Source: Verrucomicrobiota bacterium
GTDB lineage: Bacteria > Verrucomicrobiota > Verrucomicrobiia > Limisphaerales > SXTU01
NCBI GenBank assembly: GCA_016235545.1
Contig: JACRKB010000191.1
Coordinates: 1,078 to 65,077 of the forward strand
Direction: 5' to 3'
Length of the DNA: 64,000 nucleotides
Positions 36,540 to 64,000 of the stretch are shown in pieces. The position numbers and the translations under genes are program-made. The notes under the pieces were generated by a model that saw only the letters and a program-made list of their open reading frames with translations, was not told the DNA's origin and ran no database searches. How positions within the stretch are numbered: the stretch's first letter is position 1; each line of letters opens with the position of its first letter.

Positions 36540-36618
36540 TTGCCAGACCGCGGCCCTTCTGCTACGCGTGCGCCGCCCGAACAACAATTTGCCAGCACCC
36601 ATCAACGCCGAATCACCC

Positions 36619-38299: not shown

Positions 38300-38309
38300 C
38301 ACGCGCAGT

Positions 38310-39065: not shown

Positions 39066-39088
39066 GGCGGCAAGGGGTTGATGTGCTT

Positions 39089-40947: not shown

Positions 40948-40966
40948 ACGCAAAGTGTCCGGGCCG

Positions 40967-42001
40967 CTAAACCGTGGTGTAAAGGGATTTCTGCCACGCG
41001 ACGGTGCGCCGCACCCCTTCCTCCAACGGCACGCAGGGAGCCGCTCCGAACTCGCCTTCAAACCGCCCCATGTCCAGCCGCACATCATCCGGTGCCCCGG
41101 CCAAAGCCTGGCCAGCCGCCTCCATCGGGAAGCTCACCGGGACGTTTGTCACCCGCCCGATCAACTCCGCCAGCCCCCGGATCGTGGTGCGCGAATCGCC
41201 GCCGACGTTATAGACCACCTCGCGCCCATCCAAGAGGATGCGCCACATCATCCGCACCGCGTCGGCCACATAGCCGTAGGTCCGCCACGCGGTGCCATGG
41301 TCCATCATGCGAATCGCCCGCTCCGTCAGTGCGCGGCGGATGAAGGTGTTCAACACCCGCTGGTCGTCAGCCCGCGTGCCGGGCCCATACGCCAGCGCCA
41401 GCCGCGCCGCGCGTGCCGCGACTCCGCCCCTGCTCGCCGCGTGGCAGATGGCCTCGCCGCAGCGCTTCGCCTCGATGTAGCAGGCGCGCGCGTGGTCGGT
41501 GTTGGTGGTGCCGATCTGATCTTCGCGAAAAGGTGGGTCGGGCAGGCCGCTGTAAAGCTCGCTCGTGCTGACGAACAGAAACCGCCCAGCCGGTGTGAGC
41601 CGGTCCAGCAGTTCGCAGGTCGCCGCCGTGTTCAGCCGCAGCGTGGCCAGCGGGTTTTCCATGAACTTGCCCGGCTGCCCGTAACCGCCCGCGTGGATGA
41701 TCAGCCCCGCCGCCGGCAGCGTCCGGCAGAACGCCGCGTCGTGGAGCTCACCCGTAAGCAACGTGAAGCGCGGGTGAGTGAACATCTGCCGCAGATGCGC
41801 CGGCACTTCCCGGCGCGCCACCGCGAAGACCCGCTGTGGCGCGTGCGGCCCGTCCGCCAATTCGCGCAGCGTGGCAAGGAAGTAAGTCCCGACGATGCCC
41901 GTTGCGCCCGTGAGCAAGACAGTTTGTCCGGCGATTTTCTCGACCGGCAGCGAGGCCACCACCTCCCGTGCGTCGCGCTGGATTAGGTCAGGCTCCGTCA
42001 T
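40967..42001 (-). CDS. NAD-dependent epimerase/dehydratase family protein
   Basis: 344 aa. VLLTGATGIVGTYF and YIEAKRCGE (YxxxK). ATGA overlap with the transketolase C-subunit stop. Confidence 0.8.
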   Translation of the reverse strand: MTEPDLIQRDAREVVASLPVEKIAGQTVLLTGATGIVGTYFLATLRELADGPHAPQRVFAVARREVPAHLRQMFTHPRFTLLTGELHDAAFCRTLPAAGLIIHAGGYGQPGKFMENPLATLRLNTAATCELLDRLTPAGRFLFVSTSELYSGLPDPPFREDQIGTTNTDHARACYIEAKRCGEAICHAASRGGVAARAARLALAYGPGTRADDQRVLNTFIRRALTERAIRMMDHGTAWRTYGYVADAVRMMWRILLDGREVVYNVGGDSRTTIRGLAELIGRVTNVPVSFPMEAAGQALAGAPDDVRLDMGRFEGEFGAAPCVPLEEGVRRTVAWQKSLYTTV

Positions 42002-42876
42002 TGCAACACCGTGCTGATGCGCGCGCGCAGGCCGGCAGCGTCAAGTCCGCACGCCTGCTCGTGGTCGGCTAGCTTGCCGTAGTTGGTGAGGAACTGGCGC
42101 GGCACACCGCAGGAGATGAGGCGGGTCGATTGCGCCGAGAGCGCCGCGCTCACCTCGCCCGCGAGCGTGCCGGTGTAGAAAGGCTCAACCACGATGACAG
42201 TGCCACTCGTGTGCTTCGCCAGCGTTTCGCGGTCGAAAGGCGCAAGCGTCGTGTAGTGCAGCACGGTCACGTCGAGGTCAGCCGTCGCCGCTAGCACGGG
42301 CTCCAGCGACTGCGCCGCGACCACCACAGTCGCCCGCGTGCCGGTGCGCACCACCCGCGCGCGACCAAAGCTCACCGCCCCATCCTGCGTGTGCGCGCGT
42401 TCCGAGAGCCGGAAATACGTCGGCCCGCCGGAGTAGCTCTCGCGGAAGAGGGCGTCGAACTCGCGGGGATTTCCCGGCGCGACAATCCGCATCCCGGGCA
42501 CCTGCTGCATCAACGCCACGTCACCGGGACAATGGTGCGTGCAGCCGAGCGAGGCGTAGTCGAACGACGCGCCCACGCTCACGAAGCAGCCCGGCAGCCG
42601 CTGGTAGCCGAAGTCCACCTTGAGCTGCTCGAAGGCCCGCTCGACCACGAACGGGGCAATGCTGTGGAAGACGGGGATGAACCCCTCGCGCGCCAGCCCA
42701 GCGGCGAAGCTCACCGTCGCCTGTTCCAAAATGCCGATGTTCACCACGCGGCCGGGGAACTTGGCGAACGCGTTGCGGAAGCCGAACACGCCGATGTCGC
42801 CGAGCAGCAGCACCAGCCGCGGATCCTGGGCGAGCAGGTCCTCCACCGTCGCGACGAATTGCTGGCGGATGTTCAT
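41998..42876 (-). CDS. Transketolase, C-terminal (pyrimidine-binding) subunit
   Basis: 292 aa. LLGDIGVFGF, NIGILEQATVSFAAGLAREGFIPVFHSIAPF. ATGA overlap with the N-terminal subunit gene. Confidence 0.85.
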   Translation of the reverse strand: MNIRQQFVATVEDLLAQDPRLVLLLGDIGVFGFRNAFAKFPGRVVNIGILEQATVSFAAGLAREGFIPVFHSIAPFVVERAFEQLKVDFGYQRLPGCFVSVGASFDYASLGCTHHCPGDVALMQQVPGMRIVAPGNPREFDALFRESYSGGPTYFRLSERAHTQDGAVSFGRARVVRTGTRATVVVAAQSLEPVLAATADLDVTVLHYTTLAPFDRETLAKHTSGTVIVVEPFYTGTLAGEVSAALSAQSTRLISCGVPRQFLTNYGKLADHEQACGLDAAGLRARISTVLQ

Positions 42877-43652
42877 GTGAGCTGCGCGAGGATGCCGTCG
42901 AGTTCATCGGGCGTCGGAGCCTTGTGATGCCACGCCGGATTGCCCTCCATCGGCGGGCAGCCTTTGCCCTTGATGGTGGTGGCCACGATCATCCGAGGCC
43001 GCCCATCGGACGGCTGGGTCACCGCTTGGAAAATTTCCGCGTGGTCATGGCCGTCCACCGCCGCCGTGTGCCAGCCGAACGCGGCAAACTTTGCGGCGAG
43101 ATCGCCCGTGAGCAGCGCGCGGTCGCCGGAATGGTTGTAGTCGAGCAGGCAGCACAGGTTGTCCAACCGGTGATGCGCGCCCAACAGCGCCGCCTCCCAG
43201 ATCGCGCCTTCATTGGCCTCACCGTCGCCCGCCACGCAGAACACCCGCGCGGTGGATTGCTTGAGTTTCAGCCCGTAGGCGATGCCCGCCGCCATCGGCA
43301 AGCCGTGTCCGAGCGAGCCGGTGGACGCCTCGACGCCGGGAACCTTGTTGCTATCCGGGTGCCCGCCAAGCCGGCTGGTGAAGCCCGCGAAGGTCTGCAA
43401 CTCCTCGAATGGGAAGAAACCGTGGTGTGCCAGCACCGCGTAGAGTCCGAGGCTCGCGTGGCCCTTGCTGAGGATGAACCGGTCGCGTCCCTCCCATTTC
43501 GGCTGGTCGGCCTTGAAGCGCAGCACGCGCCCGTAAAGCACCCACAGCAGGTCAAGAATGGAGAAGGCGCTGGCGATGTGGCCCTCCCGCGCGGTGGTGG
43601 CCGCGAGGATGATGCGACGGCGCAGTTCCCGGAGTGTTTCGGCTTCGTTCAC
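42873..43652 (-). CDS. Transketolase, N-terminal (ThDP-binding) subunit
   Basis: 259 aa, GTG start. EGHIASAFSILDLLWVLY, ILSKGHASLGLYAVL, GSLGHGLPMAAG and GDGEANEG (ThDP motif). Confidence 0.85.
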   Translation of the reverse strand: MNEAETLRELRRRIILAATTAREGHIASAFSILDLLWVLYGRVLRFKADQPKWEGRDRFILSKGHASLGLYAVLAHHGFFPFEELQTFAGFTSRLGGHPDSNKVPGVEASTGSLGHGLPMAAGIAYGLKLKQSTARVFCVAGDGEANEGAIWEAALLGAHHRLDNLCCLLDYNHSGDRALLTGDLAAKFAAFGWHTAAVDGHDHAEIFQAVTQPSDGRPRMIVATTIKGKGCPPMEGNPAWHHKAPTPDELDGILAQLT

Positions 43653-43788: not shown

Positions 43789-45186
43789 ATGAAGCTGCTG
43801 TTCCTGATCGACAACCTGCAGTTCTTTCGCGACGTGTTCCGCAGCACGGTGCTGCCGCGCCTGCTTGCCGACGAGGGCACGGAGGTGGTTGTCGCCAGCA
43901 CCTATTCGGCGGACGCCATCGCGCAGGAGTTCGCCCACCCGCGCCTGCGCGTCCATCCGCTCCAGCCACCGCCCGCGAACTGGCTGACGGACCTTGCCTA
44001 CTCGGTGGCCAAAGACATTTACGTGCTGGAGCGGCCTGATGGCAGCTTCGCGCAAAAGCGCTTCGTGGAGGCGGAGCAGCACGAGCGGCGATCGCTGGCG
44101 GCACGCATGGCGCTTGGGCGGGCGCTGCGCGCGATGGGCTTCACCTCACGAGGAGTGATGCGGTGGGTTGAAGGGATTGGCGTGGAGCCGGATTTCGACG
44201 CGCTGCTTCAGCGCGAGCGTCCGGACTTGGTTGTCTTTTCCACCATGCTGCCCGGGGTCAGCCCGTGGCTGAAGGCCGCGCGTCGGTCGCGCATTCCCAC
44301 CGTCCTCAGTGTCGCGAGCTGGGACAACCCAACCTCGAAAGGTCCGTTGCTGGTGCCGCCCGACCACGCGCTGGCATGGAGCGAGGAGATGAAACGCGAG
44401 CTGATGCACTTCCACTGGCTGCCAGCGGAGCGCATCGCGACCGTGGGCGTGCTTTACTTCGAGAGCTATTTTGCCGCGAAGGATTTGCCGGACCGCGCGG
44501 CGTTTTGCGCGGGGCTGGGCATTGATCCCGCGTGTCGCATCCTGCACTACGCGACGGGCGACAGCGCGTTGATCCGCTGCAACCAGGAGTTCATTCGCGT
44601 GCTCCAGCGGCTGATTGCATCGGGCCAACTCGGTGAGCCGTGCCATCTGCTCGTGCGCGTCAGCCCCAAGGACTTGTTCCATCTCTACAAAGAGTTCGAA
44701 GGCACGCCCCATGTGACCGTGCAGTATCCCGCCGGTTCGGGCACGCTCTACGGCGCGCACAAGTGGCTCCCCGCCGCCGGCGAGGAGCGTGAGCGCGCCG
44801 CCACGGTGAAGCACAGCGATGTCATCCTGAGCGTCTCCTCCTCGATGGTGCTCGACGCGTGCTGCTTCGACGTGCCGGTCATCAACCTCGCCTATGACGC
44901 CGGCCTGAAAGTCCCGCCGTGGGAGTCGGTGGACCGCTTCTACGCCTACTCCCACTGTCAGCCCGTGTTGAAGTCCGGTGCCACCTGGATCGTGAAGCGC
45001 GAAGCCGAACTGCTGGAGTCGCTCCAGCTCACGCTGCGCGATCGTTCGGCGAAGCAAGGTGAACGGCGCGAACTGCTCGAACGGCTGGTCGGGCTCACCG
45101 ACGGGCAGACCAATGAGCGATGGGTGGCGGCGATGCGAAACATCGCCCGTCAGGAAAGCATTCCCGTTTCCAAGCCAGCGCGTTAG
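43789..45186 (+). CDS. Hypothetical protein, possibly a GT-B-fold glycosyl/phosphoglycosyl transferase
   Basis: Start at ATG 43789 (MKLLFLIDNLQFF). The layout looks two-Rossmann-like (VVVASTY..., LVVFSTMLPG, SVASWDNPTSKG, SDVILSVSSSMVLDA). No family named with confidence. Confidence 0.55.
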   Translation: MKLLFLIDNLQFFRDVFRSTVLPRLLADEGTEVVVASTYSADAIAQEFAHPRLRVHPLQPPPANWLTDLAYSVAKDIYVLERPDGSFAQKRFVEAEQHERRSLAARMALGRALRAMGFTSRGVMRWVEGIGVEPDFDALLQRERPDLVVFSTMLPGVSPWLKAARRSRIPTVLSVASWDNPTSKGPLLVPPDHALAWSEEMKRELMHFHWLPAERIATVGVLYFESYFAAKDLPDRAAFCAGLGIDPACRILHYATGDSALIRCNQEFIRVLQRLIASGQLGEPCHLLVRVSPKDLFHLYKEFEGTPHVTVQYPAGSGTLYGAHKWLPAAGEERERAATVKHSDVILSVSSSMVLDACCFDVPVINLAYDAGLKVPPWESVDRFYAYSHCQPVLKSGATWIVKREAELLESLQLTLRDRSAKQGERRELLERLVGLTDGQTNERWVAAMRNIARQESIPVSKPAR

Positions 45187-45197
45187 CTTCCCGAACA

Positions 45198-46067
45198 ATG
45201 AGCCAAGCAAATCCGCCCGACCTCGCGCAACTGCGGCCATCGGTGACGATCCTGGTCACGTCGTGTGACTGGTTTTACGATGTCTGGGTTCCCTTCTTCT
45301 ACTTCTTCAAGCGGCACTGGTCGGACAACCCGTTTGCCGTCCGCTTGATCACCAACCGCTTCCGCTTGGATGAGGGTGACGTTCGTGAGCTGCCCGTGGG
45401 CGAAGACAAGGGCTGGGGTGGCAATCTGATTGCCGCGTTGCGCGAAATCAGCTCCGACTACGTTCTGTATGTGCAGGAGGACCAGTTCTTCACCCGTTCG
45501 GTGGACACGACGGAGTTTTGCAACGACCTGCGCCACTGCCTGACGCACGGCGTGGATTATCTGGCTTACCGCGCTTCGCCGGAGGACGAACCGGGGTTCA
45601 AGCCGGTCAACGACCGCTTTGGCATCATCGCGGCAAACTCCCCACACCGGGTGAAGGCCGATCCAGCGCTCTGGAAACGCACGACGCTGCTGCAAATGCT
45701 CCGGGCGGACGACTCTCCGTGGCATTTCCTCAACACGGGCAGCGAGCGCTGCCGGGATTTGCTGTTCATGCGCTACTGTCGGCAGACCTCGTCCACGGTT
45801 GATTACTTGCCGGGCTCGGCGATCCGGCGTGACCTGTGGCGCAAGGAAGGGCTGGCAATGATGCGGGCGCATGGCTTGACGCCGGAGCCGGGTTATCGCC
45901 GCACGCACATCAAGATGAAGAGCCTGCTGACGCAACTGCGCCGCACCCTAACGCGCCGCCGCTTCCGGGCCGACATCCGCCGCCAGCCCGACCGCGTGGT
46001 GCCGGTGAACCGCTCCGTGGCGACGGCGCTGACCGCCACTGGCCGGGCGGTCAGGAAAGTGAATTGA
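45198..46067 (+). CDS. Uncharacterised glycan-locus protein, paralogue of 37469-38299
   Basis: Start at ATG 45198. For the shared motifs see the entry at 37469-38299. The basic C-terminal tail is absent from the paralogue. Confidence 0.6.
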   Translation: MSQANPPDLAQLRPSVTILVTSCDWFYDVWVPFFYFFKRHWSDNPFAVRLITNRFRLDEGDVRELPVGEDKGWGGNLIAALREISSDYVLYVQEDQFFTRSVDTTEFCNDLRHCLTHGVDYLAYRASPEDEPGFKPVNDRFGIIAANSPHRVKADPALWKRTTLLQMLRADDSPWHFLNTGSERCRDLLFMRYCRQTSSTVDYLPGSAIRRDLWRKEGLAMMRAHGLTPEPGYRRTHIKMKSLLTQLRRTLTRRRFRADIRRQPDRVVPVNRSVATALTATGRAVRKVN

Positions 46068-53838: not shown

Positions 53839-54735
53839 TCAATCGCTGGCCCCCGACCGTCGGAGCCACCGCGTGTAGAGCTTGTAGAGCTGCCGCCGCC
53901 AGAACGCCGGCCGGATGCCGGGATAATGCCGGAGCAGCTTCGGCAACACCTGCAACTGGAACCGGCCCAGCGGGAGCTTGTGCCACACCAGCCGGTTGCA
54001 GCCCTCCAGCACGAGCGTGCCGTCGTAGAGCTGGAAGAGCGTGAGCCGATACTTCGAGTCGTCCCGCATAGCGGCCGGAGAGTTGTCCGGGATGTTGAAA
54101 CGCGCGTAGTCCTGCGCCGCCACGTAGATCGCGTTCTTGTCCGTGATGCAGATGAGTTCGTAGCCCTTGGCTTTCCCCAGCCGGGTCAGGGCGGCCAGCG
54201 AATTGCCCTGGTTGAGGCTAATGTCCTTGGGTTGCACGAAATCAATCGTGTCGGGAATCGCCGGGTTGAACTCGATGATCACCACCCGGGGGCGGCAGCG
54301 GACGACGGAGTCCCAGAAGTGGTAATCGTTCCCGTCCACGTCAATCGAGAGCAAAGCGAAATCCTCCGGGATCGGCGTGCGGGCCAGGATGCTGTCCAAC
54401 GAACCGGGCCCGGTAAACTGGACATACTCGTTGAAGCTGTGGACGCGTGGCGTGTCCCGAAACCGGGCCAGCAAGTCCTGAAAGCGTGCGGTGTCCGCCT
54501 CGATATAGACCCCGGACCAGCCGTGATTCACCACCAGGTTCCAGGTGTTGCTCAAGTGCTTGCCGTCCCACGCGCCAAACTCAACTGCCCAGCCTTTTTC
54601 GACGCCCAAGACCGAGAAGATCTTTTCCAGCACGCCGTCTTCCCCCGCCTTGGAGGCCTCGTTCCGGGCATGGTTCATCAGCCAGTTGTTTTTCGCGCGC
54701 GGGTCGGCGGGGCTGCTCTGCGTTGGTTCAGACAT
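53839..54735 (-). CDS. Methyltransferase-like protein (FkbM-like, tentative)
   Basis: 298 aa. GVLEKIFSVLGVEKGWAVEFGAWDGKHLSNT and LLSIDVDGNDYHFW. Family assignment is tentative. Confidence 0.5.
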   Translation of the reverse strand: MSEPTQSSPADPRAKNNWLMNHARNEASKAGEDGVLEKIFSVLGVEKGWAVEFGAWDGKHLSNTWNLVVNHGWSGVYIEADTARFQDLLARFRDTPRVHSFNEYVQFTGPGSLDSILARTPIPEDFALLSIDVDGNDYHFWDSVVRCRPRVVIIEFNPAIPDTIDFVQPKDISLNQGNSLAALTRLGKAKGYELICITDKNAIYVAAQDYARFNIPDNSPAAMRDDSKYRLTLFQLYDGTLVLEGCNRLVWHKLPLGRFQLQVLPKLLRHYPGIRPAFWRRQLYKLYTRWLRRSGASD

Positions 54736-54748
54736 GGGGCAAGTCTGG

Positions 54749-55459
54749 TTAATTGGCGGGGGCCACGCAAGCCGCCGTCGGCTTCCGCGCGAGAAAGAGC
54801 GCGCGCTTCATCCGTTGGTGCAAGCGCGGCCAGACTGCCAGCGCGAGCTTCTCACCGAGCCGGAGAATCCCGCCGCCGAAGTAAAGATTCTCGCCGCCCC
54901 GGATGCGCTGCAGCTCGAAGCCCGCCTCCTTCAGGAAGCCACTCACCTCCGCGACCGGATACCAATGATCGTCCACCGGCTGGTAGCGGCGGCGGCGCGT
55001 ATTGTATTCCTCGTAGCGAAACCAGTCACGGTTCGGCACGGTCATCAGGAGCCAGCCGCCGGGCTTCAGAATGCGCCCGACCCCGCGCAGCGCAGTGACG
55101 GGCTGACCGAGGTGTTCCAGCACCTCGGTCATCACCACGCCGTCAAACTGGTCGTCCTTGAAAGCCAAGTTCTCCGCGTCGCCGGTGATGACTTGCGCGC
55201 CGGGCACGTTCTGCCTCGCGATCTCGACCAGCTTCGGTGAAATGTCCAGGCCGTGCAGTTCCGCCTGCGGCAGCGCGGCGCGAAACTCCGCCAGCAACCG
55301 GCCCTGTCCGCACCCGACATCCAGCAGCACGCTGCTCGGCGCAAGTCGCGGCGCGAGCAACCGGCGGCAGAGCCGGTAGAACTTCGGCGACATCGCCAGC
55401 TTGTCGGCGATCTGATCGTAGCCGGCGGCAATCTCGGTTTTTGAAAGCGGTTCGGCCAT
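54749..55459 (-). CDS. Class I SAM-dependent methyltransferase
   Basis: 236 aa. SAM motif VLLDVGCGQGRLL and post-I acidic residue GLDISP. Confidence 0.8.
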   Translation of the reverse strand: MAEPLSKTEIAAGYDQIADKLAMSPKFYRLCRRLLAPRLAPSSVLLDVGCGQGRLLAEFRAALPQAELHGLDISPKLVEIARQNVPGAQVITGDAENLAFKDDQFDGVVMTEVLEHLGQPVTALRGVGRILKPGGWLLMTVPNRDWFRYEEYNTRRRRYQPVDDHWYPVAEVSGFLKEAGFELQRIRGGENLYFGGGILRLGEKLALAVWPRLHQRMKRALFLARKPTAACVAPAN

Positions 55460-55468
55460 GGTCGCAGC

Positions 55469-56698
55469 TCAGTTGGCGGGCGTGGCGGCCTTCGTGTAGT
55501 GCAGGCGCTTCTGGATGTAGGGAGTCAATCGCGCGACCTGCCGGGCAATCGCCCTGGCCACGCCAGGCTGGCCGTAGATAGTGGAGGCCGCGTAACGCCC
55601 GCGCGCCAGTTGCGCCCGCACTGCCGCCTCGATCTCCGCCGCGTGCGGTTCCACCCGCCGGACGGACGGCGACCACTCGCGTCCATCCTGTCGCGAGCCG
55701 ACCAACACCACTGGAGTGCCGAGGAAGGAAGTTTCCCGCACGAAGGAGGACGAGTTGCCGATGCAGCACGCCGCGTTCTTCAGCAGCGGCAGATAGACTT
55801 CCGGCTCCAGGTTCTTGTAGGCGTGCAGCGGAAAGTCGTGGTGAAACTCGCGGAAGCGCCGGATGGCCTTCGAGATGCGGTCGGCCCCAGCGTCAATGTT
55901 CGGCCAGAGCAACACCGTCTGCGTGCCGAGCTTCTCCACGACGGTAAGCACCTCCTTCATCTGGTCCTCCTGGTGGCCGTAGTCGGTCGTCACTGGATGG
56001 AAGAGCGCCAGCAGAAATGGCTTCGCGAAATCAATTGGCATCCCCACGCCGTAGCGGGCGAGCACGTCGGCGGGCAGCTGCTTTGTCGCCTCGGCCACCA
56101 CGTCGCAGCACGGGCAGCCCAGCGGGAATACCGTGGCGGGATCCTCGCCCATCGCCACGATGTATTCGCCCGCGCGCCTCGTCGCCGGGAAGTGGTAATG
56201 GGCCAGTTTCGTGATGGCGTGGCGGGTGGACTCGTCAATCGAGCCGGACACCTCGCCGCCTTGCAGATGGATGAGGCAAAAGTTCTGGTAAACTGCCGCC
56301 ACCGTCGCCGCCAGCGCCTCGTAGCGGTCGCCGATCACCAGCACGAAGTCCGGCTTGAGCCGCTGAAACTCCGACGCGAACTCGATCACGCCCAAGCCGA
56401 TGCCCTTGGTCATGGTGATCGGCACCGAGCCTTCGACTTCGAGGTAGATTTCCGATGCGATGGGGAAACCGTCCTTCTCGACCACATCGCGCGCGCGACC
56501 GAAGCGCTCCAGCAGCATGGTGCCCGCGCAGACCACCTGCAATTCCACCTCCCCTTGCCGTTGCAGCTCCTGCATCACCGGACGGAGGCGCGCATAATTG
56601 GCGCGGTCCACCAGCACAACGGCGATTTTTTTCTTGGTCACGCGGGCAGGATGATAATCTGGCGGCGGCGGGGCGGGCAATGGGGAAACCCGAATCAC
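55469..56698 (-). CDS. neuC: UDP-N-acetylglucosamine 2-epimerase, hydrolysing (NeuC/LegG type)
   Basis: GTG start in GTGA overlap with the neuA stop. DRYEALAATVAA and HLQGGEVSGSIDESTRHAITKLAHYHF match the NeuC signature. Confidence 0.85.
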   Translation of the reverse strand: MIRVSPLPAPPPPDYHPARVTKKKIAVVLVDRANYARLRPVMQELQRQGEVELQVVCAGTMLLERFGRARDVVEKDGFPIASEIYLEVEGSVPITMTKGIGLGVIEFASEFQRLKPDFVLVIGDRYEALAATVAAVYQNFCLIHLQGGEVSGSIDESTRHAITKLAHYHFPATRRAGEYIVAMGEDPATVFPLGCPCCDVVAEATKQLPADVLARYGVGMPIDFAKPFLLALFHPVTTDYGHQEDQMKEVLTVVEKLGTQTVLLWPNIDAGADRISKAIRRFREFHHDFPLHAYKNLEPEVYLPLLKNAACCIGNSSSFVRETSFLGTPVVLVGSRQDGREWSPSVRRVEPHAAEIEAAVRAQLARGRYAASTIYGQPGVARAIARQVARLTPYIQKRLHYTKAATPAN

Positions 56699-57408
56699 CA
56701 GCCCTTCACATCCGCGAGGAACCGGGCGAACTCCAGGTCCAGTGACTCATCAATGTTCACCAGCTCGCGCTCCACCAGCAGCCCGCGCGTGTTCTCGGTG
56801 AAGATCACCTGCCGCTCCAGCAGGCAGGCGCGCGCGAGGGCGTAGCACGCGCCGTTGCGGAAGTAGAGCGGGCGCAGCGACTGCCGCTGCTTCACGGCCG
56901 CGCCCGCCGGGTCGTAGAAATCCAGCCGTCCTTCGTCCAGCACCAGCACCTTGTGCGGGTGAAACTTCGTGTCCACCCGCGAGACCGTCACGACCGAGTC
57001 CGCGCCGGACTCCGTCAGCAACTTCGCCGCGCCAGTCACGTCTTCCGCCCGGCGGAACGGGCAGGTCGGCTCCACGATGAGCACGATGTCGTAGCGCACG
57101 GAATCGTGCTGCTCGGCGGCACGCAGCGCATGAACCAGCGTCTCCACGGCGCCCGCCGTGTCCGTGCTCAACTCCGGCGGGCGCAGGAAGGGCGCGGCCA
57201 GCCCGTGCGCCTCCGCCTCCGCCGCGTAGGCGGGTGCGTCGGTCGAGATGATGGCACGGTCAATCCACGCGCACTCCGGCGAGCGCAGCAGCCGCGCGGC
57301 CCGGGCGATGAGCGAATAGCCCCCAAGCTGCTGAAGGTTCTTGTCTTGGATGCCCTTGCTCCCGCTGCGGGCGGGCACGACGGCAAGCACTCGTTGGTTG
57401 GCAATCAT
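56695..57408 (-). CDS. neuA: Acylneuraminate (nonulosonate) cytidylyltransferase
   Basis: Start at ATG 57406-57408, in ATGA overlap with the upstream stop. VLAVVPARSGSKGIQDKNL is the CTP_transf_3 signature. Confidence 0.85.
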   Translation of the reverse strand: MIANQRVLAVVPARSGSKGIQDKNLQQLGGYSLIARAARLLRSPECAWIDRAIISTDAPAYAAEAEAHGLAAPFLRPPELSTDTAGAVETLVHALRAAEQHDSVRYDIVLIVEPTCPFRRAEDVTGAAKLLTESGADSVVTVSRVDTKFHPHKVLVLDEGRLDFYDPAGAAVKQRQSLRPLYFRNGACYALARACLLERQVIFTENTRGLLVERELVNIDESLDLEFARFLADVKGW

Positions 57409-58403
57409 GGTGTGAGCAGCACGGCGCGACCACTGGTGGAACTTTCGCGGCACGCATCCACGACTTGCAACGCGCGAATCCCGTCGGCCACCGAGCACGT
57501 GAGCGGCGCCGCCGAAGTGCCGCGCACCCGCGCCAGAAGCTCCTTCGCCGCCCCGACGAACATCTCATTCCGCTCGCACGTAAACGTCTCGCGCTGCCAG
57601 TTCGCCGCGCCCTCGCGGCAGAGCTTGATGGCGTTCTCCTCATACACGTAGGCGAGCGTGCCGCCCTCGCCCATCGCCGTGATGCTGCGCTCGTGCGGGC
57701 GGCCCAGCAGGTCCAGGTGCAGGTTCACGCGCAGGCCGGACGCGTAGCTGACGAGGATGTCCACGTTGTCGTCCGCGCTGATTTCGAGGGAGGAAATCTT
57801 TTCGACCTGCGCATAGACCTTCGCCGGCCAGCCCGCGATCCACAGCATCAGGTCAATGAAATGGCTCTCGTCCAGCAGCGCGCCGCCGCCTTGCTCGCGG
57901 TTCGCCATGAAGAAATCCTGGTAGCGCTCCCACGGATGCCAGTCCGCCAGGTGCGCGCTCATCACGAAGCGCAGTGTGTGCAACGCGCCGATCTCGCCCG
58001 CCTGCAACCGCTCGCGAAACCGGCCCAGCGGCGGCCACCAGCGATACGTGTAGCCAAGCAGCACGCGGCCCGCGACCGGCTCCAGCCGCCGCGCCGCGGC
58101 GCCGGTGACGGACAAGGGCTTCTCACAAAGAATCCAGCGCTCGTGCCGCGACGCGATGGCCAGCACTTGGTCCACGTGAAAGACCGGCGGCGACGCGATG
58201 ACGAAGCCGTCGTAGCCGTGCGCGCCCAGCGCGACGTCCACTTTCGTGTGCGTGGAAAACAGCGGGCCTTCCGTCGCCGCCTCGCCCAGCCGGTCTTCGC
58301 GTGGGTCGAAGGCGCTGACGCGGCAGCCGAGCGCGCGGAGGTTGCGCGAGTGGCGCTTGCCGGCAGAACCGGCTCCGAGCACGAGAATATGTGGTGAGTC
58401 CAT
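57405..58403 (-). CDS. Gfo/Idh/MocA-family oxidoreductase
   Basis: Start at ATG 58401-58403. ILVLGAGSAGKRHSRNL Rossmann motif and the EKP motif in ILCEKPLS. Confidence 0.8.
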   Translation of the reverse strand: MDSPHILVLGAGSAGKRHSRNLRALGCRVSAFDPREDRLGEAATEGPLFSTHTKVDVALGAHGYDGFVIASPPVFHVDQVLAIASRHERWILCEKPLSVTGAAARRLEPVAGRVLLGYTYRWWPPLGRFRERLQAGEIGALHTLRFVMSAHLADWHPWERYQDFFMANREQGGGALLDESHFIDLMLWIAGWPAKVYAQVEKISSLEISADDNVDILVSYASGLRVNLHLDLLGRPHERSITAMGEGGTLAYVYEENAIKLCREGAANWQRETFTCERNEMFVGAAKELLARVRGTSAAPLTCSVADGIRALQVVDACRESSTSGRAVLLTP

Positions 58404-59956
58404 CAGCGGAGAAGTTCGGTTTGCTGGTTGTAAGCGTCGGCGTCCAACACGCATTCCAACAGCGCCGGGCCGGGCTGGCGCGACCACGCTTCGAGCCAGC
58501 GGGTGAACTCGCCTTCGTTCGTGACACGACCGCTGGCGAGGCCCATCCGTTCCGCCACGGCGGGAAAGTTCCGCTCGGCCATCACGAGCGGCGCGCGCGT
58601 CCAGCCCTGCGACTCCGCGCGTCCGCGCACGCTGCCGAACCAGCCGTCGCGCATCACGAGCACCAGCAGCGGCCAACGCCTCTCGGCGGCAAGGCTTAGT
58701 TCGCTGAAGAACGCGCGCAGCCCGCCATCGCCAATCCACAGCACGACCGGCTGCCGGCCCGCCACCGCCGCCGCGCCCAGCGCGTAGCCGATGCCCAGCC
58801 CGAGGTAGCGCCCGTTCGGCGTGCCGAGGATTTGCCGCTCGTGCCGTGCACGCAGGCAATGCTCGCCCACCACCGTGAAGTTACCGGTGTCGAGCACATG
58901 GGTCGCGTCGGGCAGCACCGTCTGCGCGACCTGTAAGAGCCGCGCCGTGGCCCACGGCCAGCGGTCGAGAGCGCGCTGCAATTCGGCGTGCGCCTTTGCG
59001 ACCAAGTCCGCGCCCCACTCGTGCTTCGCCAGTTCGGCCAGCACCTCGGCGATGGTTGCAGGGGAAAGAAAGCTGCGCGTGGGACCGGGTTGCAGCGGCG
59101 GAAAGACGGCGCGGCCCCGCACTTCGGCAGTCTCAACCCAGAGCGTGCGCGCGTGCGGTGCGGCTGGATTCAGTATCTCACCGGGCCGGACGCCGAGCAT
59201 GAGCACGAGATCAGCCTGCGGAAGCAGGTTCTTCTCCGGCGTCGCAGGCTTGCCGTCGCCAGTGTAGATGCCGGCGGCGAACGTGCCGTCCTCCGCAAGC
59301 ACGCCCTTCGCGGCGGGCGTGGTGAAGACGGGCACCCGCAGCGCGCCGAGCTGCCCCCGCCACGCCGCGCGCAACCCCAGCGAGCCGACCACGAGCGCGG
59401 GCCGTTGCGCCGCGCGGAGGGCGGCGATGATTTCCGCCGGGTCGTCCGCCGGCGTGGATGGCAACGGCGCGTTGGGCAGCGCGCCGCTTTCAACAAGGTC
59501 CACCTGCACCGGCCCCGGAAACTCGGTGCGAGCTTCCGTCAGGCACGACTCGAAAAAGCCAGGTGACGGCGAAAAGGCGCGGCAGCTCTTGAGGAACTCG
59601 CCCGCCAGCCGCGCGTGGTCGAGCCACTTGTGGCGGCGGGGGCCGGGCTTCGCCGTGTCATACGCCTCGGAGATGGAGAGCATCGGCAAGCCCTCGTAGG
59701 CATTGGCAAGCAGGCCGGGCGCGAGGTTGGCGAAGCCGGGGCCTTTGACGGTGACGGCCAGCGAAGGCGCTCCGGTTTGCCGGGCAACCGCTCCGGCCAT
59801 GAGCGCGGCGGTGGTTTTGTGGCCGGTGGTGATGAACTGCGCGCCTTGCTTCGACAGCGCGTCCACGAGCGCGAGGCTCGGTCCGCCGCCCGGCACGCCA
59901 AAAGCGAACTTGCCGCCCTGCCGCGCGAACGCCTCGCTGAACGCGGTGAAGTTCAT
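58403..59956 (-). CDS. Thiamine-diphosphate-dependent enzyme (acetolactate-synthase-like)
   Basis: 517 aa. FGVPGGGPSLALVDAL, TVKGPGFANL, and ThDP motif WIGDGGLRAF...VMRDGWFG. ATGA overlap with the upstream dehydrogenase stop. Confidence 0.8.
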   Translation of the reverse strand: MNFTAFSEAFARQGGKFAFGVPGGGPSLALVDALSKQGAQFITTGHKTTAALMAGAVARQTGAPSLAVTVKGPGFANLAPGLLANAYEGLPMLSISEAYDTAKPGPRRHKWLDHARLAGEFLKSCRAFSPSPGFFESCLTEARTEFPGPVQVDLVESGALPNAPLPSTPADDPAEIIAALRAAQRPALVVGSLGLRAAWRGQLGALRVPVFTTPAAKGVLAEDGTFAAGIYTGDGKPATPEKNLLPQADLVLMLGVRPGEILNPAAPHARTLWVETAEVRGRAVFPPLQPGPTRSFLSPATIAEVLAELAKHEWGADLVAKAHAELQRALDRWPWATARLLQVAQTVLPDATHVLDTGNFTVVGEHCLRARHERQILGTPNGRYLGLGIGYALGAAAVAGRQPVVLWIGDGGLRAFFSELSLAAERRWPLLVLVMRDGWFGSVRGRAESQGWTRAPLVMAERNFPAVAERMGLASGRVTNEGEFTRWLEAWSRQPGPALLECVLDADAYNQQTELLR

Positions 59957-60897
59957 GCGGCGGCCTTGGCGAAATGCTCCCGAACGCGCGCGGCGGTGTG
60001 TCGCAGCACGCTGGCCAGCGCGTCCGGGCTGAAGCCGCCAATGTGCGGGGTGATGGTGACGTTGTCGTGCGTCTGGGCGTATTGCCAGAGGCGGCTGTCG
60101 CGGATGTCGGGCTCACCTTCAAGCACGTCCACGCCGAGAGCGGCAGGCTTGCCGGCGGCGAGGCCGGCGAGCAGTGCCGACTCATCCACGATGGCACCGC
60201 GTGAGGTGTTGATGAGCGCGGCGCCGTCCTTCATCAACGCGAGTTCCTTCGCGCCGAGCAGCCCGCGCGTGGCGCCGGAGAAATGCACATGGATGCTGAC
60301 GAAGTCCGCGCTCGAAAGAAGTTCCGGCAGGCCGACCGCCCTCACCTCGACGGGAAACTCGCTCAAGAAGGGGTCATGCCCAATCACCGTCATGTCGAAC
60401 GCGCGGGCATAGCGCGCCATCCAGCCCCCGATGCGCCCACAGCCAATGAGGCCGAGCGTGCGCCCGCGCAGCATCGTGCCGGGGAACAACTCGCGATCCC
60501 AGCCGCCTTGCTCGACGTGCCGCAGCGCGGCGCGCAACCGGCGCGCGCAAGCCAGCAGCAGCAGCCAGCTCAACTCCGCTGCGGGCGTGATGCCGCGCAG
60601 GAATTCGCGCTCCGTCTTGAGCGTGAGCAATGGAATTCCGCGCTCCGCCAGCGCTGCGGAATCAATGTGGTCGGCCCCGGTGGTCGCGGTGATGACGAGC
60701 CGAAGCCCCGGCGCAGCATCAAGCAACGCACGGTCCAGCCGCACCTTCATCGAGGCGTCGAACACCACGGCGGCATCGCGCATCTCCTTGAGCACCGTGT
60801 CGCGCTCGGCGCGGACGTGTTGCACGGAGAAGCCACCGCCCAATTCGTCCGCCACGGTCTGCCGACCAGCCTCAGGGCCTAGATAGAGAACTTTCAC
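59953..60897 (-). CDS. D-isomer-specific 2-hydroxyacid dehydrogenase (PGDH-like)
   Basis: Start placed at GTG 60895-60897 (VKVLYLGPE). GLIGCGRIGGWMARYA NAD motif, NTSRGAIVDE and TPHIGG. Confidence 0.8.
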   Translation of the reverse strand: MKVLYLGPEAGRQTVADELGGGFSVQHVRAERDTVLKEMRDAAVVFDASMKVRLDRALLDAAPGLRLVITATTGADHIDSAALAERGIPLLTLKTEREFLRGITPAAELSWLLLLACARRLRAALRHVEQGGWDRELFPGTMLRGRTLGLIGCGRIGGWMARYARAFDMTVIGHDPFLSEFPVEVRAVGLPELLSSADFVSIHVHFSGATRGLLGAKELALMKDGAALINTSRGAIVDESALLAGLAAGKPAALGVDVLEGEPDIRDSRLWQYAQTHDNVTITPHIGGFSPDALASVLRHTAARVREHFAKAAA

Positions 60898-60958
60898 GCG
60901 AAGTGCGCGAAGCGTAGCGAATCGCTGCGAAGGCCAGCAACGGAAAAGCCCCGGCGGC

Positions 60959-61000
60959 GGGAAAGTGATTCGTCCGCCGGCCGACCGCCCACTAATCACT
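60959..61000. repeat. Family-D related low-GC hairpin (GGGAAAGTGATT ... ACTAATCACT)
   Basis: AGTGATT (60964-60970) pairs with AATCACT (60994-61000). The sequence resembles the arms at 28741 and 28913, and it overlaps the TAG stop of the methyltransferase gene. Confidence 0.55.
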
Positions 61001-62101
61001 CAGCACTGATCGCTTCTTTCCACCCGCCGCGAGCGCCTCGATCTGGGCGGTGTGGAAATCCACGCGCTTGGTGTTCCGGCCTGTGAGCTTGTAGCCCGCC
61101 CGCACCAGATGATTGGCCAGCCGGCCAATTGCCGGGACGCGGTAGAGCGCGGTAAGGCGCGCGTAGTGTTCGTCCCGCGTCTGCGCGGCGGCCAGCAGGG
61201 CGGCGGATTCACCGGGTGCGTCGCCGGTGCCCGCATGCGCGTGCGCTTCGGCGAGCGAGACTTCGGCGGTCTTGCGGCCCAGCACGTCCAGTTCGCCAGA
61301 CCAGTAATTGCCCGGGCGCAAGGCGTCGGAGGTGGACAGCATGGCGGGACGCCGTCGCGCCGCGACGATTTCAAAGCCGGCCTTGCGCAAGAGACTCGTG
61401 AGTGTGGCGAGAGTGAAATAGTAAGTGTGGACCAGCTTGAAGTAGCGCGGCGTGCCCTTGCGCAGCACGAGCGCATGCAGGTCCGGCGTCTGGAGATAAA
61501 CGAACCCGCCGGTGCGCGTGATGCGGTTCGTCTCCACGAGAGCTGCGAGCGGGTCGGAAAAGTGCTCGATGATGGCGAGGCCGGTGACGAGGTCGAATCG
61601 GCCAGCGTCGTAGCCGTTCGCCAGGAAATCGCACTGCCGGACCTCGACTCCGAAGCGCTCGTTTGCCGCACGCGCCGCTGACTCGGACTGCTCAATGCCC
61701 AGCAGCCGGTTCGAGCGGTCGAAGTGCCGGAGCCATTCGCCGTAGCCGCAGCCGATGTCGAGGATGGACCAGTTTTTCACCGGCGGCAGGTGTGCGAGCA
61801 ACCACGGCAGCAGGATGGTGCGCTGCCAGTCCTTCTCCTTCATGCGCGCCTCCGCACTGATGGGCTTGGCGTCCGCGTAATACTCCCGTTCGTAGAAGCG
61901 CTGCAACGCGGCGGGCGTGGGCTGCGGGTTCAGGAAGGTGAGACCGCACCGGCCACAGACGACCACGCGCAAGGGCAAGCCATGCAAGTGCCCGCGGTGC
62001 GTGACGCGGGTTTCGATGAGCAGGCGGTGCTGCTCCGGCCCGGCGTCGCAGTTGGCGCAACGAATGGGCTGGAACAACGGGTCGGCGGTGGTGGAATTCA
62101 T
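60992..62101 (-). CDS. Class I SAM-dependent methyltransferase with N-terminal Cys-rich (zinc-ribbon-like) segment
   Basis: Start at ATG 62099-62101, in ATGA overlap with the GT9 stop. CANC...CGRCG and SAM motif ILDIGCGYGEWL. Confidence 0.8.
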   Translation of the reverse strand: MNSTTADPLFQPIRCANCDAGPEQHRLLIETRVTHRGHLHGLPLRVVVCGRCGLTFLNPQPTPAALQRFYEREYYADAKPISAEARMKEKDWQRTILLPWLLAHLPPVKNWSILDIGCGYGEWLRHFDRSNRLLGIEQSESAARAANERFGVEVRQCDFLANGYDAGRFDLVTGLAIIEHFSDPLAALVETNRITRTGGFVYLQTPDLHALVLRKGTPRYFKLVHTYYFTLATLTSLLRKAGFEIVAARRRPAMLSTSDALRPGNYWSGELDVLGRKTAEVSLAEAHAHAGTGDAPGESAALLAAAQTRDEHYARLTALYRVPAIGRLANHLVRAGYKLTGRNTKRVDFHTAQIEALAAGGKKRSVLSD

Positions 62102-63144
62102 GAAGGAGGAGTGAAGCGTTGGGCAATGGCGGCCTGCACCTCGGCCAGCGTGATGGCCGAGAGACATTCCACCACGCGGGACTTGTCGCATTGCGGCCCG
62201 CGCACGGCCAGACAATGGCAGTTGCCGACAACGGCGTGGTGTTGCGCGCCGTAAGGCCGCCAGCGCGCGAGTTGCGACGGGCCGAAGAGAACAATCGCCG
62301 GCGTGCCCACGGCGGCGGAGAGATGCATGGGCGCGGAATCCATCCCGAAGAAAAAACGCGCCTGCCGGAGGAAGGCCGCGAGTTCGCGGAGGTTCAAGTC
62401 ACCCAGCCGCATCGGAGGCGGACGGCGGCAAAGCTGGAGAATCGCCTGCGCCCGGTTCAGTTCCTCAGCGGACGGCCCGCAGGTCATCATCGGTTGCCAG
62501 CCGCGTTCCGCGAGCCAGTCAATCAGCGCGGCGACTTTGACGTCGTTCCAGCACTTGAACAACCAGCGTGACGTGGGATGCACGACGACGAGCCGCTCCC
62601 GGCGAATGCCCTGCGCGCCGAGCCACGCCTGCGCGGCAGCCTCTTCGGCGGGCGTCTCGGGAAAGAAAAACTCCGGCTCGTAGTGCGGAAGCCCGGCCTG
62701 CACGAGAAAGTTCCGCTCGTGCTCGATGACGTGCCACGACTTGTCGGGCTTGGTGCCATGGCGGTTGAAGACATGCGGCTTCAGGCGCGAGCCGGCGGTG
62801 ACTTGGATGGCCCAGCTTTCGCGCGCACGGCTCAGGAGCGCGTAGCCCATCGCGCGGTCGCTCCAGGTGAAATCCACAAAGAGGTCGTAGCCCGCCAGCG
62901 CGATGTCCTTCGCGACACGCAGCTCGTCACGCAGTGTCGTCAATCCGCGTCCCTTTCGCGGAGCTTCGATGACCCGGTGAATCCAGTCGAAGCCCTCCAC
63001 CAGGCTGCGCGTGCCTGGCGTGACGAGCACGTCGAGCTGCGCCTGCGGGAACGTCCGGTGCAGCGCCCAGAACGCCGGCTGGCTCAGCATGATGTCGCCG
63101 AGGTGCGTGTTCTTGACGGCGAGGATACGGCGCGGCGCGTTCAT
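62098..63144 (-). CDS. Family 9 glycosyltransferase (heptosyltransferase-like)
   Basis: Start at ATG 63142-63144, in ATGA overlap. ILAVKNTHLGDIMLSQPAFWALHRTFP and the C-terminal FFGMDSAPMHLSAAVGTP are GT9 signatures. Confidence 0.8.
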   Translation of the reverse strand: MNAPRRILAVKNTHLGDIMLSQPAFWALHRTFPQAQLDVLVTPGTRSLVEGFDWIHRVIEAPRKGRGLTTLRDELRVAKDIALAGYDLFVDFTWSDRAMGYALLSRARESWAIQVTAGSRLKPHVFNRHGTKPDKSWHVIEHERNFLVQAGLPHYEPEFFFPETPAEEAAAQAWLGAQGIRRERLVVVHPTSRWLFKCWNDVKVAALIDWLAERGWQPMMTCGPSAEELNRAQAILQLCRRPPPMRLGDLNLRELAAFLRQARFFFGMDSAPMHLSAAVGTPAIVLFGPSQLARWRPYGAQHHAVVGNCHCLAVRGPQCDKSRVVECLSAITLAEVQAAIAQRFTPPS

Positions 63145-64000
63145 GCGGGCTTGAGTCGCGCGCACAAGGGCGCGAGTTCCGGCAGCGCGAGGAGCTGCGT
63201 GAGCTGGGCGCGGAAGGCGGCCACGGGGAAGGTCCAGTTGCCGCGCGATTCCCCGGCCTCGCCGTTGTAAAGCGTCACCGCCTGGTTGCCGCAGATGAGC
63301 GCGAGCTGCGTGCCGTGGCTGCTGGCGTAAATCTCATTCTCCGGTGTGCCCGGTGCAAGCGTGACCAGCAGGTTGCCCTCGGCGAAAAGCACGTTGCAGA
63401 TGCCCTGCCCGATGGGGCCGAGGATGACCGGCGCGCGGCGGAAAGCGACGATTTGGTCCTCCAGCGTCTTGTCCTTGAACTCGAACACGTCCAACTCGCC
63501 CAGCAGCTCGCGCGCGGCGGCGATGAGTTCATCCTCATTCTCAACGCGCTTGTCCGGCGCGTCGCGGCGGGTGACAAAGATGGGCCGGGCCGGGCCGGGG
63601 GGCTGTCGGCGCTCGACCTCCGCCGCGCGGTCGCGGATGAAACGGTAATGGTCCGGCGGGCTGAGGGCGTTGGAGCCGTAAGCCAGCGGCACGTGCAGCA
63701 GGCGCTCCGCGCGCAGCGTGCCTTGCGAGCCTTCCACGACGCGCGACTCGTCCTCGCCGATGAGCCGCAGAAAATTCTTCTGCCAGCGTGCGTGCCCTGG
63801 TGCAACGAGGATGCGGTAGTCACCGAGTTGTTCCAGCACTGGCCGCGCGTTGAGCAGGCGAGAGAGATGTTGGAGCAGGAAGTGGCCTTTGTTCTCGTGG
63901 TTGCGGCCCGTCAGGTGGAACAGCGTCCCGCTCTCTCGCCGCGCCAGCCACGGCACCGGGCGGCGGATGCGCATAATCCCCAGCCGCTCCTGGTGCGGGT
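63141..64000 (-). CDS. Family 61 glycosyltransferase (DUF563), 5' end probably outside the window
   Basis: GHFLLQHLSRLL, IFVTRRDAPDKRVENEDEL and GPIGQGICNVLF. The frame stays open upstream of the first ATG (63974) to the window edge. Confidence 0.7.
   Translation of the reverse strand, partial: PHQERLGIMRIRRPVPWLARRESGTLFHLTGRNHENKGHFLLQHLSRLLNARPVLEQLGDYRILVAPGHARWQKNFLRLIGEDESRVVEGSQGTLRAERLLHVPLAYGSNALSPPDHYRFIRDRAAEVERRQPPGPARPIFVTRRDAPDKRVENEDELIAAARELLGELDVFEFKDKTLEDQIVAFRRAPVILGPIGQGICNVLFAEGNLLVTLAPGTPENEIYASSHGTQLALICGNQAVTLYNGEAGESRGNWTFPVAAFRAQLTQLLALPELAPLCARLKPA

Follow-up and report, generated by a model that had tools for sequence, protein, structure and literature searches.

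The 64,000-nucleotide stretch of Verrucomicrobiota DNA analysed here (contig JACRKB010000191.1; hereafter the window) holds the late block of a conserved gene cassette that encodes NeuC, NeuB, often a methyltransferase, a D-isomer 2-hydroxyacid dehydrogenase (2-HADH), a thiamine diphosphate (ThDP)-dependent enzyme, a Gfo/Idh/MocA dehydrogenase and NeuA (Table 1). Linkage of the ThDP, 2-HADH and Gfo/Idh/MocA genes, referred to as the trio, to sialic-acid genes is strongly supported by comparison of gene neighbourhoods. On balance we favour the reading that the cassette makes a CMP-activated sialic-acid derivative that is remodelled by ThDP chemistry, and the product is probably a surface sugar that has not yet been described. 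What the enzymes are, and that their genes are conserved together, is read from the genomes; the chemistry of the pathway is what we infer from them.

The seven open reading frames (ORFs) at positions 53839–60897 all run in the same direction on the minus strand, mostly overlap and have a GC content at third codon positions (GC3) of 0.81–0.85; the window sequence is GC-rich (63–70%). Gene families were assigned with Pfam and NCBIfam models, which gave the order 2-HADH, ThDP enzyme, Gfo/Idh/MocA, NeuA, NeuC, class I methyltransferase and FkbM-like protein from 5' to 3'. An initial annotation made from the letters alone had proposed the same seven genes, strand and order, and these were borne out by the ORF, GC3 and family evidence. 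It had also described tight junctions between the genes, and direct reading recovered every one of them: ATGA at 59956, TGATG at 58405–58401, ATGA at 57408 and GTGA at 56698.

To see how far this arrangement extends, 80 loci from species-representative genomes were fetched, their ORFs were clustered and the partners of the ThDP gene were counted by tblastn. The partner counts use the 42 loci with at least 7 kb of sequence upstream and at least 5 kb downstream. A 2-HADH was present in all 42, Gfo/Idh/MocA and NeuA in 40 each, NeuC in 34 and NeuB in 29. All five partners occurred together in 28 of the 42 loci, and the 2-HADH, ThDP and Gfo/Idh/MocA genes were directly adjacent in 32. The loci span at least 10 phyla according to their deposited labels, some of which are clearly wrong. 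The labels include Verrucomicrobiota, Alpha-, Gamma- and Deltaproteobacteria, Nitrospira, Acidobacteria, Gemmatimonadaceae, Rokubacteria, Planctomycetales, Omnitrophota, Giovannonibacteria, Bacillota, Caldithrix and Bacteroidota. Three loci (L007, L008 and L031) that share 56–91% protein identity with the present Verrucomicrobia cassette are deposited as Akkermansia muciniphila, Klebsiella and Bifidobacteriaceae, and these labels look wrong.

The first three contexts examined were a Sedimenticolaceae chromosome, a gammaproteobacterial metagenome-assembled genome (MAG) and a Prosthecobacter MAG. All three have the ThDP gene between the 2-HADH and Gfo/Idh/MocA genes and near genes with CTP_transf_3, NeuB and Epimerase_2 domains. 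The usual order outside the Verrucomicrobia is NeuB, NeuC, an optional methyltransferase, 2-HADH, ThDP enzyme, Gfo/Idh/MocA and NeuA, while the order within the Verrucomicrobia is 2-HADH, ThDP enzyme, Gfo/Idh/MocA, NeuA, NeuC and methyltransferase. Standalone four-gene units flanked by unrelated housekeeping genes were also found. A NeuB-independent route, in which the four-gene unit would make an ulosonic acid alone, is disfavoured, since a strong NeuB was found elsewhere in the genome for 12 of 12 carriers that lack one nearby. Two apparent fusions of the ThDP and Gfo/Idh/MocA genes (L053 and L066) were artefacts of ORF calling, since the two genes lie in separate frames with an intervening stop. 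At L036, a locus without Gfo/Idh/MocA, the insertion encodes an MBOAT acyltransferase and no replacement oxidoreductase.

The trio could in principle be an unrelated metabolic module that merely lies beside neuA and neuC, and all that speaks for this is that it has no known role in canonical sialic acid synthesis. We give this explanation hardly any credence, because the trio is syntenic with NeuA, NeuC and NeuB across at least 10 phyla and NeuB is present in every carrier genome tested; in addition, overlapping start and stop codons join the trio to neuA in the window. The refuting case that the initial annotation named, a ThDP/2-HADH pair not conserved with neuA and neuC, thus does not apply: the conservation extends across many phyla, with NeuB as a further partner.

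The NeuC model scores well above its equivalog cut-off. The long form that starts at GTG 56698 is matched only from residue 23 onwards, and GTG 56641 is therefore the likelier start codon. For NeuA the closest solved relative is the CMP-NeuAc synthetase of Neisseria meningitidis (3.2e-22). Together the two enzymes mark a CMP-nonulosonate pathway of the N-acetylneuraminic acid (Neu5Ac) type, as had been proposed from the sequence. The 68.5-kb contig has no DegT-type aminotransferase, which supports a Neu5Ac-type precursor over one of the legionaminic or pseudaminic type. The cassette shares NeuC/LegG-, NeuB/LegI/PseI- and NeuA/LegF/PseF-type enzymes with the legionaminic and pseudaminic acid pathways. 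It differs from them in that no set of 4,6-dehydratase, aminotransferase and N-acetyltransferase could be identified on the contig or in the conserved cassette, in agreement with the initial annotation, and in that the PseF model gave 107.8 bits, below its cut-off of 205.7.

The initial list of sialic-acid genes was right about NeuC and NeuA and overlooked a NeuB-family synthase 16 kb away from the cassette, which is the sole NeuB in the genome. This protein has no match to the SAF domain and falls below the equivalog cut-offs for both NeuB and PseI (205.7 bits with TIGR03569, cut-off 399.65). The closest solved relative is 6ncs, a synthase of 290 aa that also lacks SAF. The gene adjoins an MsbA-like ABC exporter and a short-chain dehydrogenase/reductase (SDR). 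Among 41 related genomes the ThDP gene is present in six, and five of these six also have a short NeuB of about 200 bits, twice on the same contig. The related genomes without the cassette have a full-length NeuB of about 300 bits or none. The genomes of the genus in which the cassette is accompanied by the SAF-less NeuB are G000, G004, G012, G016 and G037, and this co-occurrence marks the SAF-less protein as the predicted synthase of the cassette in this lineage.

Compared with the CMP-Neu5Ac pathway of N. meningitidis (SiaA, SiaC and SiaB) and E. coli K1, the cassette has the same three kinds of enzyme: a NeuC above cut-off, a NeuB-family TIM-barrel synthase and a NeuA that resembles CMP-NeuAc synthetase. 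The differences are that the 2-HADH, ThDP and Gfo/Idh/MocA genes are wedged between the synthase genes and neuA, and that the NeuB of the window is SAF-less, far below the cut-off and remote from the other genes.

Together with its relatives the ThDP enzyme makes up a separate family of proteins about 515 aa long, at the edge of which the scores drop from 264 to 216, 157 and 130 bits. When the family profile was compared with solved structures, the catabolic acetolactate synthases came out best (203–209 bits), followed by carboxyethylarginine synthase (182 bits) and the YerE-like flavoenzyme JanthE (8rph, 112 bits). With the catabolic acetolactate synthases of Klebsiella pneumoniae (ALS) and Bacillus subtilis (AlsS) the family shares the PYR, middle and PP domains, the Glu of the HE motif and the GDGG...D motif. 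The Mg-ThDP motif is intact in the window protein, where GDGG at residues 409–412 and D437 align with the acetolactate synthase motif. The family differs from these enzymes in several ways. An HK pair at residues 109–110 aligns with their HQ pair, so that a Lys stands where AlsS has Gln124, and the final residue of the family is an invariant Arg. The equivalog models for acetolactate synthase (AlsS and IlvB) gave only 114–117 bits against cut-offs of about 510, no NCBIfam equivalog cut-off was approached, and the family has its fixed neighbourhood with sialic-acid genes.

Membership of the sulfopyruvate and phosphonopyruvate decarboxylase families, which had been raised as a possibility, was not upheld. 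Models for these decarboxylases were not among the best 25 of the 49 NCBIfam matches to the ThDP enzyme, and unlike the two-domain or split proteins of these families the enzyme has a middle domain and a length of 517 aa. The suggestion of a YerE-like enzyme fared better as a mechanism than as a family assignment: the enzyme may branch a sugar in the manner of YerE, but by sequence it is not of the YerE type. The clusters for yersiniose (YerE/YerF) and the ErwE, MMAR_2332 and MyGE pathways also have a ThDP enzyme of the acetolactate synthase superfamily within a glycan cluster (PMC9306805). These clusters further resemble the cassette in their oxidoreductases, their S-adenosylmethionine (SAM)-dependent methyltransferase and an enzyme able to supply a special 2-oxo acid (PMC9306805). 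JanthE, through which the comparison was made, has 619 aa and binds FAD (PMC12188165), against about 517 aa in the present family. The acceptor route also differs, as it does not involve an NDP-3,6-dideoxy-4-ketohexose (no E1 or E3 enzyme is found among the genes annotated at 33.6–64 kb), and here the nucleotide partner, CMP, is carried by an ulosonic acid.

The 2-HADH has the features of the D-isomer 2-hydroxyacid dehydrogenases, with catalytic and NAD-binding domains (PF00389 and PF02826) and the Arg/Glu/His set. Its translation contains the motifs SRG, DV..EP and TPHIGG and shows no deviation at 64 near-invariant columns. It is closest to short phosphoglycerate dehydrogenases (138 bits) and then to glyoxylate reductases (120 bits). 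In the Gfo/Idh/MocA protein the motifs EKP (as CEKP) and D-x2-H (in LLDESH) are present, and none of 72 near-invariant columns deviates. Its closest solved relatives are NAD-dependent sulfoquinovosidases and 3-dehydrogenases, with scores of only 40–58 bits (PMC10755693).

These properties can be combined into a candidate pathway. NeuC would hydrolyse and epimerise UDP-GlcNAc to N-acetylmannosamine, which the SAF-less NeuB-family synthase would condense with phosphoenolpyruvate to a Neu5Ac-type acid. The Gfo/Idh/MocA enzyme may then oxidise a secondary hydroxyl of the sugar, or of a nucleotide precursor, to a ketone. The 2-HADH would supply a 2-oxo acid that is not abundant, for instance hydroxypyruvate or 3-phosphohydroxypyruvate, and the ThDP enzyme would decarboxylate this acid and add the acyl-anion unit to the ketone, a branching like that of YerE and ErwE carried out by a different ThDP clade. 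The methyltransferases would decorate the sugar, NeuA would activate it with CMP and neighbouring transferases would attach it to a surface glycan. With the carbonyl from Gfo/Idh/MocA, the 2-oxo acid from the 2-HADH and the joining by the ThDP enzyme, each member of the trio keeps its canonical chemistry. Even so, this particular sequence of ketone formation, 2-oxo acid supply and joining is put forward only tentatively. There is precedent for ThDP enzymes that join keto sugars to 2-oxo-acid donors supplied by a dedicated enzyme, and their clusters also encode a reductase and a methyltransferase (PMC9306805). For yersiniose this donor logic has been shown; for erwiniose, caryophyllose and gastriose it is a proposal backed by in vitro data (PMC9306805).

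Several observations weigh against a remodelled sialic acid made in this way. The NeuB of the window is not of the cassette type, being about 30% identical to it and deviating at 18 of 47 near-invariant columns. JanthE (112 bits) is a more distant match to the ThDP family than catabolic acetolactate synthase (209 bits) or carboxyethylarginine synthase (182 bits). The specificity of the 2-HADH is not fixed by its matches to phosphoglycerate dehydrogenase and glyoxylate reductase, which stay below all NCBIfam cut-offs, and with 58 bits at most to a solved relative of the Gfo/Idh/MocA enzyme the position that is oxidised can only be guessed. The sequence of the steps cannot be read from that of the genes, and literature searches found no known product and no assay of any trio step. 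The claim of a lesion in the ThDP gene of the window (see below) is limited in turn by a base call that comes from one metagenome-assembled contig.

The same parts can be arranged differently. The nonulosonic acid might itself be the ThDP donor, with NeuB in the place of the aldolase in a scheme of the erwiniose or caryophyllose type. The 2-keto-3-deoxy acid would then be decarboxylated and its polyhydroxy C8 acyl unit passed to a keto sugar from Gfo/Idh/MocA or to a 2-oxo acid from the 2-HADH, which would give a long acyl-branched or chain-extended higher-carbon sugar. YerE-like enzymes do take aldolase-made 4-hydroxy-2-oxo acids of C4–C8 as donors, and such clusters hold a reductase and a SAM methyltransferase (PMC9306805), the same kinds of parts as in the cassette. 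We nevertheless regard this arrangement as improbable. Decarboxylation destroys the alpha-keto-acid group that a NeuA-type enzyme requires, yet NeuA (40 of 42 loci) is the partner most tightly tied to the trio. If the 2-oxo acid were re-made by ligation with glyoxylate, the N-acetyl group would by our own reasoning come to stand in the place of the pyranose ring oxygen, and homologation of Neu5Ac with glyoxylate was set aside on these ring-closure grounds. Moreover, an NDP-hexose 4,6-dehydratase is not universal in the cassette.

A connection of the cassette with the C10 ulosonic acids that Magnetospirillum gryphiswaldense has in CMP-activated form was considered and could not be established. 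Those acids have two N-acetyl groups, unlike the product of NeuC and NeuB, and no named Magnetospirillum, nor any cultured organism, is represented among the best 120 of 562 ThDP-family clusters, which also counts against the nonulosonic acid as donor.

Alternatively, the trio might shorten or cleave the carbon chain and thus lead to a truncated C7 or C8 analogue of sialic acid. In a mandelate-like version the 2-HADH would form a 2-oxo acid, the ThDP enzyme would turn this into an aldehyde and Gfo/Idh/MocA would oxidise or reduce it; in a second version a transketolase-like ketol cleavage would follow once Gfo/Idh/MocA has oxidised the glycerol side chain. The succession of a 2-HADH and a ThDP decarboxylase is classical, as in sulfolactate/sulfopyruvate and mandelate/benzoylformate, and the alignment of the active-site HK pair with the HQ pair of acetolactate synthases also fits this reading. 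In 13 loci a UDP-sugar 6-dehydrogenase is encoded close to the cassette, and such an enzyme could provide a 2-hydroxy acid at the end of the chain. It is missing from most cassette loci, however, and from the annotated part of the window (about 33.6–64 kb; positions 1–33,000 and the remaining genome were not searched). Decarboxylation of nucleotide sugars is normally carried out by SDR enzymes, and we know of no truncated natural sialic acid. We regard chain shortening, too, as improbable.

It is also conceivable, but improbable to much the same degree as the donor scheme, that the sugar skeleton stays plain Neu5Ac and the trio makes a separate small block, either a group of the glyceroyl, glycolyl or lactyl type or an alcohol phosphate activated by a cytidylyltransferase for the TagF-like transferase. 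The resemblance of the 2-HADH to phosphoglycerate dehydrogenase and to glyoxylate/hydroxypyruvate reductases is in line with this, and so is the close solved relative carboxyethylarginine synthase, which derives a side chain from triose phosphate. Furthermore, a TagF/TarL-like GT-B protein (family c8) is found next to the cassette in 18 loci. The conserved core, on the other hand, has no acyltransferase, CoA ligase or carrier protein. Most loci have a single cytidylyltransferase, which is of the CMP-NeuAc synthetase type, and the trio is tied to NeuA and not to any transferase. Under the favoured reading of a remodelled CMP-ulosonic acid, the TagF/TarL-like protein may instead be the transferase for the CMP-activated product.

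The initial annotation had missed a change in the ThDP enzyme of the window: it has a Lys at position 47, which aligns with the HE-motif Glu of the K. pneumoniae and B. subtilis acetolactate synthases. In ThDP enzymes the Glu of the PYR domain activates the cofactor via N1' of the pyrimidine ring. Glu was found at this position in all 74 orthologues from the fetched loci and in 13 of 13 sequences read from the 90% cluster, and relatives with 83–91% identity carry GAA or GAG at the codon. A single G-to-A change at 59818 accounts for the Lys, which probably disables the ThDP enzyme of this genome. If the base call is right, the strain probably skips or blocks the ThDP step.

The exact Lys47 protein was found on one contig of one MAG only, and a consensus or assembly error, or a minority variant in an organism with a normal ThDP enzyme, is an unlikely explanation that nevertheless carries real weight. 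The ratio of non-synonymous to synonymous substitutions (dN/dS) is 0.06–0.17 across all genes, as expected for purifying selection, and the value for the ThDP gene (0.13–0.17) is like that of its neighbours; long-standing pseudogenisation was rejected on this ground. The partners are intact, with no deviation of the 2-HADH, Gfo/Idh/MocA, NeuA and NeuC proteins at near-invariant family columns (NeuB, as described above, is the exception). The ordinary dN/dS and the intact partners suggest that the change is either recent or an error. Single-base consensus errors are rare in assembled contigs, and the same protein also departs from the family at the near-invariant positions 70 and 337, both of which argue against an error.

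A second lesion points in the same direction. The congener G012 has a frameshifting internal deletion of 188 nt in its ThDP gene (L088; G012:C451, 4326–5691), while its 2-HADH, Gfo/Idh/MocA, NeuA, NeuC, methyltransferase, GT9, GT61 and SAF-less NeuB genes are intact. Loss of the step thus seems recurrent: with two of the six carriers bearing separate lesions in this gene, some strains may have dropped the ThDP step.

The operon of the window is larger than first described. The initial annotation was correct in its content but left out four upstream genes, which encode a GT4 and a GT61 glycosyltransferase, a GT9 glycosyltransferase that resembles heptosyltransferase III, and a SAM methyltransferase with an N-terminal CxxC...CxxC ribbon. 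Together with the seven genes they form an 11-gene surface-glycan operon. The GT4 gene is the first gene and lies upstream of GT61 on the contig beyond the window. GT61 has a full length of 386 aa with its start at the window-equivalent position 64301, also beyond the window end. The ribbon methyltransferase starts at ATG 62101, where an ATGA overlaps the GT9 stop; the longest ORF (from TTG 62215) overstates its length. The family of this methyltransferase (c6 in the clustering of ORFs) was found with the cassette in 36 loci. The class I methyltransferase is lineage-specific and present in close relatives only, and the FkbM-like gene is shared with one locus (L009) only.

A gap of 94 nt between the ribbon methyltransferase and 2-HADH genes is the sole real intergenic spacer of the operon. 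A hairpin with a T-run at 60962–60949 within this gap is weak and not above chance (4 terminator-like sites were found where 8.9 are expected), and the scan for promoters and terminators as a whole gave no signal above chance.

Table 1. Cassette, operon and neighbouring features in the 64,000-nucleotide window, listed in descending order of position.
Feature	Position	Strand	Model match or remark
GT61-family glycosyltransferase	63141–64000	-	PF04577, 2e-15; gene extends beyond window end
GT9 heptosyltransferase-III-like glycosyltransferase	62098–63165	-	TIGR02201, 184.8 bits (cut-off 170.2)
SAM methyltransferase with N-terminal CxxC...CxxC (zinc) ribbon	60992–62101	-	PF13489, 1.6e-18
94-nt gap, sole real intergenic spacer of operon	60898–60991	-	
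D-isomer 2-hydroxyacid dehydrogenase (2-HADH)	59953–60897	-	PF02826, 1.6e-50; also PF00389
Acetolactate-synthase-like ThDP enzyme, 517 aa, three domains	58403–59956	-	PF02776, PF00205, PF02775
Codon 47 of ThDP gene, AAA (Lys)	59816–59818	-	Relatives GAA or GAG (Glu)
Gfo/Idh/MocA NAD-dependent dehydrogenase	57405–58403	-	PF22725 (1e-16), PF01408, PF02894
NeuA-type CMP-ulosonate synthetase (CTP_transf_3), 237 aa	56695–57408	-	PF02348, 3.4e-15, 56.9 bits (cut-off 22.6)
NeuC, hydrolysing UDP-GlcNAc 2-epimerase	55469–56641 (alternative GTG start 56698)	-	TIGR03568, 339 bits (cut-off 235.9)
Class I SAM methyltransferase	54749–55459	-	PF08241, 1.2e-24
FkbM-like protein (weak), last operon gene	53839–54735	-	PF05050, 24.1 bits (cut-off 22.7), over 49 residues
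TagF/TarL-like GT-B protein, 486 aa	43726–45186	+	Family c8; PF04464 in 11 of 14 members
NeuB-family synthase without SAF domain	36568–37455	+	PF03102, 198.7 bits
MsbA-like ABC exporter beside NeuB	34674–36539	+	Family c10, next to NeuB in 15 cassette loci

Other genes recur around the cassette. At positions 38310–43652 the minus strand of the window has a split transketolase (two genes), two SDRs and methyltransferase-like genes. This group accompanies the cassette in most loci of the Verrucomicrobia as well as in a single gammaproteobacterial one (L046), and it is the second module of the glycan region that depends on thiamine. Two paralogous proteins of family c13 without a Pfam or NCBIfam match are encoded at 37469–38302 (minus strand) and 45120–46067 (plus strand) and recur beside Verrucomicrobia cassettes. 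Two gammaproteobacterial loci (L003 and L004, 15866–21551) have a PLD-like gene inserted in the cassette and an adjoining gene set of the sphingolipid type, with an ABC exporter, a class I/II aminotransferase, an acyl carrier protein, an SDR and an AMP-binding ligase; in L003 the set additionally has a DAGK-like kinase. Frequent neighbours elsewhere are sulfotransferases, polysaccharide deacetylase, NusG/RfaH-like and wHTH regulators and PLD-like genes.

Full-text literature searches found no description of the cassette. Three points are new for this genome: the type of its partner NeuB, how far the operon reaches, and the natural lesions that probably knock out the ThDP step. Host, phage and immune recognition involve nonulosonic acids as key sugars of the cell surface, and the routes to them that we know of rely on the chemistry of epimerases, dehydratases, aminotransferases, acyltransferases, synthases and cytidylyltransferases alone. 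If the favoured reading is true, the conserved thiamine-dependent step would be a new kind of reaction for nonulosonic acids and would predict a sugar not yet assigned by structural surveys. In its boldest form, which we offer as speculation, the cassette would carry out the first formation of a C–C bond by a ThDP enzyme on a sialic acid and make a C-branched or chain-extended (C10–C11) CMP-ulosonic acid found widely among uncultured bacteria from many phyla; the natural E47K and deletion variants in this genus would then switch individual strains between a remodelled and a plain sugar. With six or seven genes the set is compact and thus directly testable, and the two natural lesions in the ThDP gene provide ready-made comparison strains. 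ThDP enzymes that take sugar-sized substrates are also sought as biocatalysts for the synthesis of tertiary alcohols.

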